Below, piece by piece: positions 32,932-47,512 of a stretch of 64,000 nt of DNA. This DNA comes from Infirmifilum sp. (GTDB lineage: Archaea > Thermoproteota > Thermoprotei > Thermofilales > Thermofilaceae), in the NCBI GenBank assembly GCA_041287245.1, contig JBEULP010000108.1:1-64000 (forward strand), written 5' to 3'. Below the pieces are notes generated by a model. That model saw only the letters and a list, made by a program, of their open reading frames with translations, had not been told where the DNA came from and ran no database searches. Each line of letters opens with the position of its first letter. Positions within the stretch are counted from its first letter, which is position 1. A program made the position numbers and the translations under genes.

Positions 32932-32956
32932 CTTTCAATTCATTCTCTTCGGATAC
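32932..32956 (-). CRISPR. Solitary CRISPR repeat GTATCCGAAGAGAATGAATTGAAAG with AT-rich leader-like flank
   Basis: 23/25 identical to the repeats at 46793 and 46857; ends in ATTGAAAG; intergenic; no second repeat at spacer distance. Confidence 0.75.
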
Positions 32957-34523: not shown

Positions 34524-37500
34524 TTGTCTCTACATAAAAATATTGTGGGTGTCTTTCTCCTCCTAGTTCTAATAACGACCGTTCTCACCCCTGTGCTAGC
34601 CCAGCAGCAGAGTAACCCTCTCTACGTAGCCTTCATCTGGCACTACCACCAGCCCTGGTACTACGACGTCTCAGGCTCTTACTTTATCCTCCCATGGACT
34701 AGAATGCATACTGTGGGGAACTACTATAAAATGGCCTATATACTCTCAAAATATCCGAACATCAAGGTCACGTTTACATTCTCCGGCTCTCTAATACAAC
34801 AGATAATAGATTACAACAACGGGGTGAAGGACTACAGGCAAATGCTGTCTGAAAAGATAGCCCAAGGGCAAAGCCTGACTGTTGACGAGAAGTTCGCAAT
34901 GCTGAGCATTCCGAACGGGTTCTTCGACGTAAACTGGAACCGTATAGTTAACGTGGTTCCAAGGTTCCGCGAATTAAGGGACAAGGCGCAGAGCGCTCTA
35001 AGCCGGTATGTCTCCCTTCCTGAGAGAGAGTTTAAGACGCGCGTCGTGGCGGAGTTCTCAGACCAGGATTTCCTGGACCTAGCCGTTCTATTCAACCTTT
35101 TCTGGATAGACCCCGAGGTTCTCCGTGAACAGTACCCGGATGTGTACCAGCTGAGACAGCAGGCGGTTAACGGTGCTAGTGGTTTTACAAGGCAACAGCT
35201 TCAAATGGTTCTAAACGTGCATAAGGATCTACTCGCGAAGGTCCTACCCTTTTACGCTAACCTAGCTAGAAAAGCCCAGATCGAGCTTATACCAGTACCT
35301 TACAGCCACCCCCTCGCGCCCATCCTAGCCGACTTCGGCCTTATAGATGACGTCAAGCTTCACGTGTCCCTGAGCACAAGCCTCTTCCAGAAAGTGTTCG
35401 GATACAAGCCTGTGGGCATATGGCCCGCGGAGCAGGCTGTCAACGGCTTAGTCCTATCGGTCTTCGCCGGCGAAGGTTACACGTGGACTGTGACTGATGG
35501 GACGCTGCTCGGCAAGGCCGGTCTCAACCCCTCCGACCCCTCTGTGGGCATGAAGGCATGGTATGCTACGCCCAACGGGAGCAAAATCTATGTCTTCTTC
35601 AGGAACACTGAGCTCAGCAACCTTATAAGCTTCCAGTACAGCAATCAAGACCCCAGGCAGGCGGCGCAGGATCTCTTAAACAGGCTTCTCAACATGGCGA
35701 AGCAGAGCGACGGCACCAATATCGTTGTAATTGCTCTCGACGGTGAGAACCCGTGGGAAAACTACCAGGAGTTTGGCGACACCTTCCTCGAGTCTCTCTA
35801 CTCAGGTCTCAGCGACCTCCAATCCAAGGGTCTGATTATCACCATAACTCCCCAGGAATACCTCTCAAAGCTGTCACACTCCGCCCGCGAGCTTCCTCTC
35901 AAAACATACCGATACCTTGATCTGGCCGGCAGGGACATCTCCGACATACCTCTAAACCCTACAGACGACGCTTATTCAATCCTGCCCCGTAGAAATGTAA
36001 CCTCCCAGATACCTGAGGGTTCCTGGGCCGGCGGAGAGCTGACAATTTGGATAGGACAGAGACAAGAAAACGCCGCGTGGATGCTGCTCATAAAGACCCG
36101 ACAAGACGTGCTGAGAGCGCTAGGTGTAAAAAGCCTCAAGGAGGCCCTTACGGTTAACCCGAAAGCCACAGAGGACATTCTAAGAGCAGAGGCTAGTGAC
36201 TGGACATGGTGGTACGGAGGCGACGGAGGGGGAACCTTCCCTGCAAACCCACTCTACAAGGGTTATCTCACGAGAGCCTACATCGATGCGGGCCTAACTC
36301 CCCCGGACTACCTTGTTGCCCAATTCAACCCTGACGCAACCCCAGCAGGGGTTCTAAATACCAATTATCCCAAGCCGCCTACCACCGAGCCTTCACTAGA
36401 CGGCAAGTTTAAGACTGGAGAGTGGGCTGGCGCGCTCAACGCCTCCTTGGGTGACAAGCTTTTCACAAACATTCTAGTGTGGCCTTCTAGCCGAGGGTTG
36501 TACATCGCTGCTATCCCCACCTCAAAGGCAACTCTAGGAGACCCAAGCGTCGCAATAGCCATTTACACGACTTCGAACATACGAAGCGTCAGCCCCTACC
36601 ACCCTGGCTTTAACTCCTACCCAAGATACTCGAAGACCGACATTGGAATGGGGCTCTTCTACGAGATACTAATATACCCGGCGAACAAGAGCATGGTTAT
36701 CAGCGCAGCAGACGGCAACGAAAAATGGACCCCGCTCTTCTACATGAACGCGGCTGTCGACGATGTTATCGAGGTTTTCGTACCCTGGACCAGTATCGGC
36801 CTCTCCCAAGGGGAGCTGTTCTATCTCACCGCAGCCTCCTACAAGAGCCTCTCCCTTCAAGACACAGCCTCCAGGCTTGGCTCGGTTTACCAGCTGGTAG
36901 TTCCAAGGGCTACTGCTCTAGGCGCGGGAGCAAAGGTGGTCTTCGACATGAATGACCCGACAGGCGACGATGACGGTGCCGGTGGATACAAGTATCCAAA
37001 AGCAGACGTGTTTGTCCCAGGGGTGTTCGACCTCACACGCTTCAGAGTTGTAGACCAGGGTTCAACCTTAAGGTTCGAAGTATATGTCAAGGATCTTGGA
37101 GGTAACCCATGGGGAGGCCCCAACGGCTTCTGCCTTCAATATCCTCATATCTACATTCACACTACAAGCAAGATGCCAGGACGCACAGACACCTTCGGCT
37201 TGAACGTGAATCTTACAGCGGACTCAGCTTGGCATATTGCCATACTACTGGCACCCGGGTGGGGCTCAGATCCAGTCCCCAACGGCGAGAAGTCCGCAAT
37301 ATACTTCGCCGATGGCTCAGTAATAGTGCAGGACGACAAGTTCAAGGTATACGCGGATCCGGCGACCAATTCCATAGTAGCCGAAGTCGCGAAGGACGTC
37401 TTGCCGGACGCTGATAACGCTAGTAAATGGGTCTACACGGTAGCCGTCACAAGCTTCGACGGTTACGGCAACATGAGGATCAGGCCTTTCGGACTCGACC

Positions 37501-40101: not shown

Positions 40102-41598
40102 TTGAAGAGAGCAATCGGTCGCAACGTACTGATAGCGATAATTCTTGTTCTTGTAGCCGTGGGAATAATAATCTTCTATCAGCTAAGCCTACCCCCAACA
40201 CAGCCCTCCCAGCCTAGCCAGCCTTCTCAACCCTCTCAGCCTTCTCAACCAAGCCAGCCTTCCCAGCCCAGTCAGCCTTCGCAGCCAACAAATGCTACAC
40301 AGCCGCAACAACCTCCACCCTCAACGCTACAGACTATAACTATCGGGACAAGCACTATCAGGGTTCCCAACGACTTTTATGACTTTGTATCAAAGGTCAA
40401 GTCTGGACAGCTAAAAGTTACGATAAACTTCTGGACCGGGATGAGCCAGTGGGAAGTAGATGTTATGAAGAATGTGCTAAACAAGTTCCAACAAGAGTAT
40501 CCCGGGATAACCGTCAAGTATACCAACGTTCAGAACCTCAAGGAACAGGTTAAGGCTGGAGTACTCACGGGCGACGTAGAAAACACAGCTCATGTTTTCA
40601 CATGGGCCCACGATTGGACCGGAGACCTTGCAGACAGCGGAACAATTATAGCCCTGGACAAGTACCTCCCGCCTGAGACCCTGGTGGATTTGAAGGGCCA
40701 GTATATGTCTTCTGCCTACCTAAGCGGCATGTACAAGCTCCACCTTTATGGCCTGCCGTGGGCCGCCGAGGCCATAGCTCTAGTCTGCAACAAGGATCTC
40801 GTGCCAAATGCCCCGCAAACCTGGGGTGACTATGAGAAGATAATGCAGCAGTGGTACAACCCGTCAAAGAACACTTACGGGATAGCTTACCAGATTGACC
40901 CGTACCACGTCTACCCGTTTGTCACGGCATTTGGAGGATACTACTACGACGAGGATAAAAATACAGTGGGCGTGAACTCCACTGGAACCCTCAATGGGCT
41001 TACCTTCTACGTCACACACGTAATGAAGTACATGTATACATCTGACGTTGGAATGGAGACGCAGCTCAAAATACTCCTTGAGGGTAGAACACCCTGCATG
41101 GTCACAGGCCCCTGGAACATTCCGACGATAAAGCAGACGATAAAGAACGTCGTCGTCTACTCCATACCGCCCATCGATGGTAAGACCCCCAAGCCGTTCT
41201 CAGGCGTGAAGCAGCTCTGGATAACCAAGGTGGTCGAGGGCGACAAGAACAGGCTATATGCCTCCATACTCTTCACAATGTGGTTCACGCTCAACGACGA
41301 CACATTGAAGACTCTCGTCGACGCTGGCTACATACCGGTCAAACTCTCAATCCTCCAGTACCTGCAGTCTAATGCTGACAAGTATCCTACTATACTCGGC
41401 TTCGCACAGGCCGTTTCAAACAGCATACCGATGCCGAAGTCTGCCAACATGAACTACGTGTGGAGCCCTGTGAGCGACGCTCTGAACGCTATTGTTACGA
41501 AATACAACGAAGCTGGCCCCGACGCCGCTGTGAGCATCATTCCGCAGTTGCTTAATGACGCACAAGCAAAGATTATATCCAAGATAAGCGGGCAGTAA
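40102..41598 (+). CDS. malE: Maltose/maltodextrin ABC substrate-binding protein
   Basis: N-terminal TM, QPS linker, WAHDWTG, YGLPWAAE, TGPWN, PFSGVK, PMPK; adjacent to amylolytic genes. Confidence 0.88.
   Translation: MKRAIGRNVLIAIILVLVAVGIIIFYQLSLPPTQPSQPSQPSQPSQPSQPSQPSQPSQPSQPTNATQPQQPPPSTLQTITIGTSTIRVPNDFYDFVSKVKSGQLKVTINFWTGMSQWEVDVMKNVLNKFQQEYPGITVKYTNVQNLKEQVKAGVLTGDVENTAHVFTWAHDWTGDLADSGTIIALDKYLPPETLVDLKGQYMSSAYLSGMYKLHLYGLPWAAEAIALVCNKDLVPNAPQTWGDYEKIMQQWYNPSKNTYGIAYQIDPYHVYPFVTAFGGYYYDEDKNTVGVNSTGTLNGLTFYVTHVMKYMYTSDVGMETQLKILLEGRTPCMVTGPWNIPTIKQTIKNVVVYSIPPIDGKTPKPFSGVKQLWITKVVEGDKNRLYASILFTMWFTLNDDTLKTLVDAGYIPVKLSILQYLQSNADKYPTILGFAQAVSNSIPMPKSANMNYVWSPVSDALNAIVTKYNEAGPDAAVSIIPQLLNDAQAKIISKISGQ
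40201..40287 (+). repeat. (Gln-Pro-Ser)x9 coding repeat
   Basis: 9-bp period with varied synonymous codons, in frame in the SBP linker. Confidence 0.9.
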
Positions 41599-45077: not shown

Positions 45078-46409
45078 ATGCCCGAAGAGTTTGAACCATA
45101 CCCCGAATTCGTAAAGTGGGACCATATCCCAGACCTCGAAAGAGAGGTTGTAGTTACATTCCGCCTTGTCCCCGGGGAGGGTTTCACCGTGGACGATGCT
45201 GCAGGAGCTGTTGCCGCAGAAAGCAGCGTCGGGACTTGGACTACACTCTACGAGTGGTACGACAAGAGCCGGATTAACAGTTTGAAGGGCAAAGCGTATC
45301 AGAAAAAGCCCCTGCCAGACGGGTCTTTCCTTGTCCGAGTTGCTTACCCGGTAGAGCTTTTCGAGGAAGGGAACATGCCTGCATTTCTAGCATCAGTTGC
45401 TGGCAATATTTTCGGCATGAAACGCGTAAAGTCTCTAAGGGTTGAGGACATATATCTACCTAAGCCATTCCTTGACTTTTTCAAAGGACCATCTAAGGGA
45501 ATACCGGGTATACGCGAAGTTATGCGTATCTCAAGGAGGCCCATAATAGGTACGGTTCCCAAGCCTAAGGTCGGTTACTCGCCTGACGAGGTTGAGAGGC
45601 TCGCCTACGAACTACTTATAGGCGGTATGGATTATGTTAAGGATGACGAGAACATTGCCAGCCCAAGCTACTGCAGGTTTGAGGAGAGGGCGAAGGCTAT
45701 AATGAAGGCGATCGACAGGGCTGAGAGGGAGACGGGCGAGAGAAAAGCCTGGTTTGCAAACATCACGGCAGATGTTAGGGAGATGGAGCGAAGGCTGAAG
45801 CTCGTAGCAGAGTATGGAAATCCATACGTTATGGTCGATGTGGTAATAACTGGATGGTCAGCTCTGACATACATCAGAGATCTCGCCGAGGAGTATGGAC
45901 TAGCTATCCACGGCCACAGAGCCATGCATGCGGCATTCACTCGGAACGAGTATCACGGCATATCAATGTTTACCCTTGCGAAGCTCTTCAGAATTATTGG
46001 AATAGACCAGCTTCACGTTGGTACACCCGAGGTAGGCAAGCTGGAAGCTAAGGCAGTCGACGTTCAGCGCAACGCTCGTGTCCTGAGGGATGCAGCGTAT
46101 GTCCCGGACTCCGAGGACTTCTTCCATCTTAATCAACCCTTCGGCTCCATGAAACCCTCCTTCCCCGTGGCAAGCGGTGGGCTACACCCCGGGACTCTCC
46201 CGGAGGTCATAAGGAAGATGGGGGAAGACATAGTGATACAAGTTGGCGGTGGTGTTGTCGGCCACCCAGACGGCCCTAGAGCTGGTGCTGCAGCCGCGAG
46301 ACAAGCGGTCGAGGCTACGCTTGAGGGAATAGACCTCTCCGAGTACGCAAAAACCCACCACGAGCTTGCACGGGCTATCGAGAAATGGGGCTTTGTAAGG
46401 CCTGCGTGA
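45078..46409 (+). CDS. rbcL: Form III ribulose-1,5-bisphosphate carboxylase
   Basis: AAESSVGTWT, GTVPKPKVG, GGMDYVKDDEN, HGHRAMHAA, GKLE, SGGLHPG, GGGVVGHP. Confidence 0.95.
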   Translation: MPEEFEPYPEFVKWDHIPDLEREVVVTFRLVPGEGFTVDDAAGAVAAESSVGTWTTLYEWYDKSRINSLKGKAYQKKPLPDGSFLVRVAYPVELFEEGNMPAFLASVAGNIFGMKRVKSLRVEDIYLPKPFLDFFKGPSKGIPGIREVMRISRRPIIGTVPKPKVGYSPDEVERLAYELLIGGMDYVKDDENIASPSYCRFEERAKAIMKAIDRAERETGERKAWFANITADVREMERRLKLVAEYGNPYVMVDVVITGWSALTYIRDLAEEYGLAIHGHRAMHAAFTRNEYHGISMFTLAKLFRIIGIDQLHVGTPEVGKLEAKAVDVQRNARVLRDAAYVPDSEDFFHLNQPFGSMKPSFPVASGGLHPGTLPEVIRKMGEDIVIQVGGGVVGHPDGPRAGAAAARQAVEATLEGIDLSEYAKTHHELARAIEKWGFVRPA

Positions 46410-46410
46410 A

Positions 46411-47225
46411 ATGGCTGAGGCTAAGACTCTGATCATAGCCCACGGCGACTGTGACGGGGTTACTTCGGCAGCTCTAGCGCTCTCTATATACGCAGGTAAG
46501 GTCGTGTTCTCTCACCCTGTAGGCATCCTTGGAGACCTGGACGAGTTCTCAGAGGATGCGGACAGGATAGTAATCCTAGATATAGCCTTAGATGAGAGGC
46601 ATTGGAGACAACTTGCGGAAAGACTCGCTGGGTATTGGGAAGCTATATACGTGGATCACCACCCCCCTCCTGTGGGATCGCTAGAGTTCCTGCGGGAGAA
46701 AGGAGTGAAAGTAAACCACGAGGAGAATGCGTGCACAGCAGAGCTCACCTTCAGGTATCTAAAGCCTAGGGCTGACCTTAGCCGCGTAGCTCGTATCAGA
46801 AAAGAATGAATTGAAAGATGGCGTAGTCACCTATGCATCCGTATAGAGCTACGCGGGTATCAGAAAAGAATGAATTGAAAGAGCAGGCTACGGTAATAGA
46901 GGAGGCACGCGAGAAACTCCCAAAGCGCTTAAAGGTTCTGAAGAACATAGCGTTTGTAGAGCACCCAGAGGCCAGCCTGGGGATAATGGCTTTCTATGCC
47001 GCAGTGGTCTCAGGTATGAGGGTGGGAGTTGCTATAGAAGTTAAAGACGGGTGGGCGGTAATGAGCCTAAGGGCTAAGGATCCACGCGTAGACCTCAACA
47101 GCCTGCTACGTAACATCGCGCCTTCATTTAAGGGCCATGGCGGAGGACATAGGAGTGCGGCAGGCGCCAGGGTCCCCCTAGAAAATCTGACAGCCTTTCT
47201 TTCAGCCCTGGATGAAAGCCTTTAG
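46411..47225 (+). pseudogene. DHH/DHHA1 phosphoesterase split by a CRISPR repeat-spacer-repeat, with central deletion
   Basis: N-part 46411-46792 has HGDCDG, ILDI, VDHH, ACTAEL; C-part from 46881 has SLRA and GHGGGHRSAAGAR; the parts are in different frames and separated only by the CRISPR unit. Confidence 0.88.
46793..46881 (+). CRISPR. Mini-array: two identical 25-bp repeats GTATCAGAAAAGAATGAATTGAAAG and one 39-bp spacer
   Basis: Repeats 46793-46817 and 46857-46881; spacer ATGGCGTAGTCACCTATGCATCCGTATAGAGCTACGCGG; ATTGAAAG 3' end typical of archaeal type I-A/III repeats. Confidence 0.9.
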
Positions 47226-47512
47226 ACTTTTATCAGCGACAGGGTTTTTCTGTCGAGACTTCTTATTTTCTCGCGGGCTTCTTGAAGGCTCGCAGCATGC
47301 TCAATTCCCTCAACACGCACATTGTAATACTCTTCAACAGAGCTTTCAGCTAACAATTTTCTTACATCCATGTCATCGTCAAGGACAAGGTATACGTAGC
47401 TACCCAAACTGTAGACTGCCTGCACGCCTGCTAGCCTCATAAAGTGCTCCTTTGCTGGGGCAACACAGCTAGCGCAGCCAATACCTGACACCTTGAGAGT
47501 TACGAGTTTCAT
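47222..47512 (-). CDS. Heavy-metal-associated (HMA) domain protein
   Basis: LKVSGIGCASC metal-binding motif. Confidence 0.8.
   Translation of the reverse strand: MKLVTLKVSGIGCASCVAPAKEHFMRLAGVQAVYSLGSYVYLVLDDDMDVRKLLAESSVEEYYNVRVEGIEHAASLQEAREKIRSLDRKTLSLIKV

Follow-up and report, generated by a model that had tools for sequence, protein, structure and literature searches.

The DNA considered here is a stretch of 64,000 nucleotides (nt) of contig JBEULP010000108.1 from an Infirmifilum sp. of the Thermofilaceae (GCA_041287245.1), called the window below, in which a gene for a DHH phosphoesterase is broken by a minimal CRISPR array, two repeats around a single spacer that is antisense to the intact form of the same gene. 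The window corresponds to contig C19 of an assembly (G000) of 1.81 Mb in 119 contigs that is 99.99% complete and 5.05% contaminated. An intact gene for the archaeal Rubisco large chain, rbcL (45078..46409, + strand; Pfam PF00016 and PF02788, with RuBisCO_large at E 5e-90), whose start agrees with the MPEEFEPYP of relatives, ends in a TGA that is separated by a single A from the ATG of the DHH gene at 46411. The 5' part of the latter (46411..46792, + strand; Pfam DHH), 127 codons and one further nucleotide with 63-65% identity to intact orthologues, is joined to the first base of a 25-nt CRISPR repeat (repeat 1, 46793..46817, + strand), which supplies an in-frame stop at 46807-46809 (…RVARIRKE, then the stop). 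A 39-nt spacer that can form a hairpin (46818..46856, + strand) and a second 25-nt repeat, identical to the first (repeat 2, 46857..46881, + strand), come next, and the last base of repeat 2 is joined to the 3' part of the gene (46882..47225, + strand; Pfam DHHA1), which is 58-60% identical to its orthologues and is free of further stops or frameshifts. The DHH gene is dead; its protein has lost the conserved GAIGD motif and 73 residues.

This cassette of 89 nt (46793-46881) stands in place of 216 nt of the DHH gene, a loss on which the alignments to all three orthologues agree. Both junctions lie exactly on repeat borders: on the left, where the intact gene would continue TATACG and the repeat begins GTATCA, there is no microhomology, and on the right it amounts to at most 1 nt. 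The insert holds the repeats and the spacer only, with no nuclease or transposase of its own encoded, and a scan against Rfam gave no match. No leader was found at the cassette, where the 120 nt upstream are DHH coding sequence with an AT content of 46%; five of the six leader loci of the genome have 60-71% AT and the sixth (C64) has 48%, the 139-nt leader end at C64 being 94% identical to that of C82:36254. In this genome and its relatives the AT-rich leaders lie 5' of GTATC..., and judged by their positions ATTGAAAG is the 3' end of the repeat on the rbcL/DHH strand. An earlier, sequence-only reading of this DNA had placed the DHH start 1 nt after the rbcL stop, had put the same repeat end at the 3' side on the mRNA strand, had seen no leader, and had allowed the spacer only an 11-nt match in the resident allele, and all of this holds. 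A separate observation concerns an ATG within the spacer (46833), which is in frame with the DHHA1 half and open through repeat 2, giving an open reading frame of 130 amino acids (46833-47225). A split yet working enzyme made with the help of this start was considered and rejected, as the GAIGD motif and the 73 residues would be missing.

Read as its reverse complement, the spacer encodes RVALYGCIGDYA, in register with the RVALYGAIGDY of the family, and 28, 28 and 26 of the 39 nt are identical to the three orthologues. In the resident allele only the final 11 nt of the spacer find a match: their reverse complement is identical, at 11 of 11 positions, to the DHH sequence just left of repeat 1 (46782..46792, + strand), which is the leftover of the target, complementary to the 3' end of the spacer and found both by blastn with spacer positions 29-39 and as inverted repeat I13. 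The other 28 of the 39 target nt, together with the flank on the guide's 5' side, were deleted with the 216 nt. There is no other full match of the spacer in the genome, and its length is the mode of 377 spacers from four relatives. Judged by sequence, the spacer appears to derive from the host DHH gene, whether that of the cell itself or of a same-species neighbor, and it codes for Cys where nine of nine homologues have Ala. The search for an intact same-species DHH allele returned only six distant loci from a metagenome scan with the N-terminal half and nine full-length homologues, at 40-65% identity, from a protein search; the named homologues are from Infirmifilum, and the single truncated DHH protein found has the length of that from one of the run contigs described below. 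Patterns made from the spacer had no matches in viral and genome collections, as searched in a form that may leave out near-identical records. As to the protospacer-adjacent motif (PAM) of the system, none of the 377 spacers from relatives had a full match outside arrays, and the CCN/TCN triplets found 39 and 42 nt ahead of the left junction are a chance expectation. The hairpin of the spacer has a predicted stability of -16.4 kcal/mol at 37 °C, which 6 among 3000 matched 39-mers of the genome reach, as do 5 among 362 natural spacers; this stability was noticed after the fact, and the hairpin melts at 85 °C in the model, in which the 3' end of the spacer would pair with the 11 leftover nt of the same transcript even at 70-85 °C.

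The cassette is judged real, well beyond chance and unusual. Both its junctions are bridged by Logan contigs from three hot-spring metagenome runs (X1, X2 and X3), all of one study, which may be the window's own source. Contigs of X1 (3236 nt) and X3 (2916 nt) span the cassette whole, and a contig of X2 (2442 nt) joins 46792 to 46857, with a single repeat and the spacer absent, an allele in which the spacer has proved dispensable. The bridging contigs extend at least 255 nt beyond each junction in all three runs, no loose ends or partly fitting contigs were found at the site in any of them, and the junctions thereby passed the check for artefacts that the earlier reading had named as able to refute it. 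No intact path joining the DHH halves was found in the window's assembly or in the three runs, and the broken allele is present in four of four assemblies; the run contigs are consensus paths at a depth of about 6 from which rare variants are dropped, and a minority intact allele is possible. Compared with the window the three run contigs show 3, 1 and 6 differing letters, and among themselves they differ by single-nucleotide polymorphisms (SNPs). The two-repeat form occurs with E88 (X1 and X3), which is the state in three homologues, and with V88 (the window), which is taken as derived, and the single-repeat form occurs with V88 only, a distribution that weakly favors loss of the spacer over its later gain. 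Amino-acid-changing and silent differences number 3 versus 1 in the DHH halves and 0 versus 2 among those listed in rbcL, which hints at relaxed constraint on the DHH halves.

Three of the 19 rbcL loci fetched from relatives have a DHH gene next to rbcL, and there it is intact, with a product of 317-325 amino acids. A split DHH gene occurs in none of the 22 other genomes of the family, 11 of which have the orthologue in one match, six a distant paralogue only and five nothing; ten of the 11 one-piece orthologues have no inner stop, and that of G001 has one TAA inside the match. The DHH gene is likely dispensable because 11 of the 22 family genomes are without an orthologue, and the same comparison suggests that the cassette arose in one event in one lineage.

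The earlier reading depended on a cognate cas6 and effectors elsewhere in the genome, and Cas6, type I-A and type III-B are indeed all there. Contig C85 carries cas1, cas2, cas4 and csa1 with cas3, beside a leader and an array; C35 has an effector module of type I-A next to a leader and, on the csa3 side, a repeat identical to that of the cassette; and C18 has a module of type III-B that includes cas6, Csx1 and a ring-nuclease-like gene. The Cas6 of C18 scores under the NCBIfam cut-off and over the Pfam PF10040 cut-off, and it is 52% identical to the product of a cas6 in G001 that lies beside an array with the identical repeat. The cassette repeat has no mismatches to the leader-adjacent repeat of C35 or to arrays of G001 and of the complete genome G005, where two arrays flank the same I-A and adaptation genes, again with the exact repeat of the cassette on the csa3 side. 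C35 and C85 overlap in the cas8a-cas3 stretch with 78% identity, each with its own leader and repeat variant, and are either paralogous loci or two lineages in the bin; the cas genes lie on separate contigs of this binned assembly, and their linkage in the same cell is unproven. Two further contigs, C91 (III-D-like) and C115 (a second I-A), are of atypical composition, from which 1-2% of 150 windows deviate further, and were given no weight. At up to four mismatches the repeat pattern has 19 copies in the genome, as against none for a reversed-pattern control; two are in the cassette, seven in arrays at contig ends, five after a leader and five alone, and one of the lone copies, with four mismatches, is doubtful. 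Of the features of a host array, the cassette thus has the identical repeat, the usual spacer length and the cognate cas6 and effectors, and it lacks the leader.

The layout, the repeat-border junctions, the cognate cas genes and the broken allele in four assemblies are the observed basis for the interpretation that is preferred here, namely that the cassette is a one-off repair scar, a piece of a host array pasted into a break made by self-targeting; this is probable, with considerable room for doubt. Cas1-Cas2 attack just the two bonds at which these junctions lie, which points to the spacer integrase: the complex of Pyrococcus furiosus attacks exactly both repeat borders and gives half-site products at either (PMC6698737). 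The retained spacer runs opposite to the gene and hence was not the point of crossover; the flanks must have met the repeats either as the ends of spacers or as those of the chromosome. An explanation by template switching, or by recombination by way of the retained spacer, was tried and rejected, as it would give the gene running through the protospacer into an inverted repeat, and the order seen differs.

In the route proposed, the starting event would have been the acquisition of a spacer out of the DHH gene's 3' part, the roughly 39 nt that now follow repeat 2, and this spacer would have primed an attack on the gene, after which an antisense spacer would have been cut from the damaged DHH gene and inserted at the leader. 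Cas1-Cas2 would then have attached the left end of the broken chromosome to the first repeat, at its leader-side border, a step that fits the 11-nt overlap of the left chromosome end with the spacer, and one short-homology crossover via the older spacer would have restored the right arm. The product would evade both guides, since one target is deleted and the PAM of the other has given way to repeat sequence. An identical product, indistinguishable here, would come from a variant in which three self-spacers in a row are followed by two crossovers; the route is a reconstruction in all its steps, and the four-step form is its most economical version. Published work supplies several of the ingredients, in that self-targeting in Haloferax provokes spacer acquisition from both strands near the cut (PMC7521656), most new spacers in P. 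furiosus come from its own chromosome, at broken DNA (PMC5737086), and both target deletion as an escape from self-targeting and the frequent loss of spacers between repeats are known (PMC6990116). After its origin the allele would most likely have spread by descent or ordinary recombination, the spacer would now be under loss by repeat-repeat recombination, and read-through from rbcL would probably yield some guide RNA as a by-product.

Several points weigh against a repair scar. A donor array with this spacer was found neither in the genome nor in the three runs nor in viral or genome collections, and no paper was found in which Cas1 joins a chromosome arm to a repeat in vivo. According to the available text on Haloferax, spacers from upstream and downstream of a cut come from opposite strands (PMC7521656), and an antisense spacer upstream of a sense priming spacer mismatches that pattern, of which one direction was tested there. 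The Cys-for-Ala difference in the spacer finds no explanation, the phasing of SNPs with the cassette is unproven in contig paths and the counts are tiny, and the presence of the broken allele in every assembly is something for which the scar alone does not account.

The single-repeat allele of X2 also allows the order of events to be turned around, such that a lone repeat with the 216-nt deletion came first, both chromosome ends meeting at one repeat in the normal geometry of Cas1, and the spacer was captured later from incoming intact DNA. Leaderless lone repeats are present at three further sites of the genome, where three relatives have none, and at one in G005, P. furiosus Cas1-Cas2 integrate at non-leader repeats in vitro (PMC6698737), and the spacer straddles the deletion edge, with a donor strain that might account for the Cys. 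Such a capture would, however, have had to occur at the deletion edge and at a leaderless repeat, whereas integration in vivo is almost confined to the leader-proximal repeat, as the available text of the same paper has it. The two-repeat form is moreover found on both E88 and V88 and the single repeat on V88 only, spacers are commonly lost between repeats, and the other lone repeats carry no spacer and are small insertions instead of coding deletions, all of which makes this order of events unlikely. Still less credence is given to a chimera of assembly, in which an array elsewhere would hold three consecutive DHH spacers and short-word assemblers would have crossed from gene to array and back to gene. 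The assembly is indeed fragmented (119 contigs) and 5% contaminated, repeats on C35 and C17 lead straight into open reading frames in a manner that resembles spacer-mediated joins, spacers of about 39 nt exceed the 31-letter words of the run index, and all three runs are from one study and possibly the source of the window. Yet both junctions are bridged in every run by single contigs with the flanks given above, these contigs carry SNPs against the window and against one another, an intact allele or a donor array would give extra branches where neither loose nor partly fitting contigs were seen, and no assembly offers an intact path between the gene halves.

A repair scar of this kind could still be transcribed. 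Read-through from rbcL into the cassette is likely because of the orientation, the 1-nt gap, the conserved adjacency and the lack of a T-run, and on these grounds it is plausible that a guide is made by it. Class 1 Cas6 cleaves repeats and leaves an 8-nt handle on the CRISPR RNA (crRNA), and with the cas6 of the genome this predicts a crRNA of handle and spacer at 46810..46856 (+ strand). The predicted guide would be antisense to the intact mRNA, a target for type III-B, and could match the intact DNA, a target for type I-A; a block on reversion by an incoming intact allele is a fair prediction and would be a reasonable side effect of such a guide. The promoter scan used a sigma-70 model, which is uninformative for archaea. 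A small convergent HMA-like gene (47222..47512, - strand; a weak Pfam HMA match below the cut-off), a neighbor common to loci L002 and L004, shows that on the rbcL strand the DHH gene comes last. The earlier statement that the cassette puts Cas6 cut sites in the rbcL operon transcript stands insofar as cuts are predicted about 390 nt past the rbcL stop, in the broken last gene, but the Rubisco coding sequence would be spared. As an aside, if Cas6 also cut repeat 2, the DHH mRNA downstream would keep a handle and might serve as a second guide, of the sense strand (46874-46920), which would persist in the single-repeat allele.

The sequence-only reading had taken a further step and proposed a natural homing or gene-drive-like cassette. 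On such a view of a self-spreading allele, a transcript from the rbcL promoter would be processed by Cas6, and the released guide would direct the I-A and III-B effectors to destroy intact alleles, with the result that imported DNA could not revert cassette cells, an intact sister copy would be converted, and the allele would spread faster than by descent. The orientation is the right one, the coupling to rbcL is close (1 nt) with the adjacency conserved in three relatives, the interval from the rbcL stop to the cassette contains no stretch of four or more T, and the genome has the cognate cas6, I-A, and III-B with Csx1. An antisense guide suits both DNA and RNA targeting, the resident allele is without the 5' 28 nt of the target, and four of four assemblies, from one study, have the broken allele in an otherwise polymorphic population; in addition, hyperthermophilic crenarchaea import chromosomal DNA for homologous repair (PMC9905601). 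The available text of that paper, however, makes no mention of Thermofilaceae (0 matches), and no positive evidence for homing or a drive was found: there is one event only, with no recurrence at the site across lineages (0 of 22 family genomes), the spacer is lost in one of the three runs, and no intact allele was found. Nor is diversity reduced around the cassette, the cassette contigs having 10/8594 nt (1.16/kb) and the flanking ones 51/33788 nt (1.51/kb; P = 0.25), in a weak test whose flanking set consists of the 20 longest listed contigs, with 57 shorter pieces left out. The guide itself seems handicapped by the strong hairpin of the spacer and by the pairing of its 3' end with the leftover 11 nt in the transcript, and it would carry at least two mismatches if the intact allele had the Ala of the family. 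Cas3, furthermore, degrades DNA processively, which would favor killing over clean conversion and likewise counts against self-spreading, an explanation to which only a small probability is assigned. Much the same doubt attaches to a wider proposal that takes in the repair as well, according to which Cas1-Cas2 would mend a CRISPR-broken chromosome on array repeats, the scar would make its guide from the borrowed promoter of the broken gene and so lock the knockout, and the hot-spring population would have been swept by a protein-free CRISPR drive whose spacer, with every intact allele gone, would now be in decay.

Among known systems, a literature search that had most subscription journals outside its scope found no printed natural case of a repeat-spacer-repeat unit replacing its own protospacer. 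Escape by target deletion (PMC6990116; for Haloferax I-B, PMC7521656) resembles the cassette in its chromosomal spacer, intact cas genes and protospacer deleted in a dispensable gene; in the cases given in the available text, the joins are made by microhomology, insertion sequence (IS) elements or genes homologous to each other, with the spacer left in its array, whereas here the repeat-spacer-repeat unit itself fills the deletion with its junctions on repeat borders. Spacer-protospacer recombination with phages (Varble et al. 2019, as cited in the available text of bioRxiv 10.1101/2020.10.09.333658) likewise employs the spacer as a short homology, but the partner there is a phage and the locus is transduced, while in the cassette the gene is chromosomal and the spacer, being inverted, is not the crossover point. 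Mini-arrays and solitary repeat units, among them regulatory crRNA-like RNAs (bioRxiv 10.1101/2023.03.03.530964) and viral mini-arrays (PMC7099407), both known here from literature listings, share one spacer between two repeats with Cas acting in trans; the cassette differs in lying outside a cas locus or virus, in having no leader or promoter of its own and repeats that are not degenerate, and in a target that is the deleted coding stretch rather than a cas promoter or a rival virus. The homing guides of CRISPR-associated transposons (bioRxiv 10.1101/2020.07.02.184150, again from listings) and engineered CRISPR gene drives have in common with it a guide aimed at the empty allele of its own site, but the cassette has no transposase, element ends, cas gene, recurrence across genomes or evidence of copying. 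It has the geometry of a homing element, occupying and destroying the site that its guide would recognize, with neither an enzyme of its own nor recurrence. Off-target integration by Cas1-Cas2, giving 'neo-CRISPR' loci, was reportedly described by Nivala et al. in 2018, and these loci resemble the cassette in their Cas1-type junctions and in a spacer within a gene far from a leader. Such integration was rejected as the origin here: it would duplicate local sequence and delete nothing, and the cassette has perfect array repeats absent from the orthologues and 216 nt lost.

Other repeats of the genome deserve to be recorded in their own right. Lone copies with two mismatches lie at C70:2571, C82:52304 and C96:24073 (L035-L037), at gene ends or between genes, and are absent at the syntenic place in three relatives each; the C70 copy supplies the last codons and the stop of a gene for 641 amino acids, and the C96 copy, with an AT-rich stretch upstream, may be a decayed leader locus. 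Of the 211 copies in G005 a single one stands alone; this leaderless repeat, at G005:C1:73173 (L069), lies directly after a very GC-rich stretch that resembles the end of a structural RNA gene, and none of the 208 spacers of G005 matches its own chromosome outside arrays. Within the window, 32932-32956 (- strand) is a leader with one repeat and no spacer; a leader with a single repeat is also present in the complete genome G001, and four more are in G000 (C35, C64 and twice C82). Since an X2 contig spans 32932-32956 without difference and G001 is similar, these empty arrays are real in the group. At C35:4939-5311 and C17:5139-5486, where repeats lead straight into reading frames of unknown genes, either the assembler joined arrays via a spacer into a virus or plasmid or long DNA was integrated at the repeat border. 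At C82:62192 the end of a leader-repeat abuts the stop codon of a gene that converges on it, presumably for a prolyl-tRNA synthetase, and in G005 the same flanks enclose about 3 kb of additional DNA. Two differences among the assemblies lie elsewhere in the window: a tandem QPS-repeat linker in a gene for a sugar-binding protein (40200-40290) is 18 nt shorter in one run, at 40264, and at 36313-37104 an X1 contig skips 790 nt, with a weak short side of 23 nt and a loose end at 37126.

As a rule, a self-targeting spacer and the damage it has done are not observed in one place, and if the cassette is the repair scar that it appears to be, cause and repair product would here lie together in one piece of 89 nt. 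Even as a one-off it would be a natural record that array DNA can patch the locus that was its target; target-deletion escape itself is known, but a patch made from the array is not among the printed escapes from CRISPR autoimmunity that were found. It also suggests a route by which new leaderless repeats or arrays might be seeded around the chromosome, and at least three more lone repeats are present in this genome. Finally, if the guide is expressed, the loss of a gene such as that for the DHH phosphoesterase would become irreversible where the members of a population exchange DNA, a prediction that is open to direct test with the two natural alleles, one carrying the spacer and the other lacking it.

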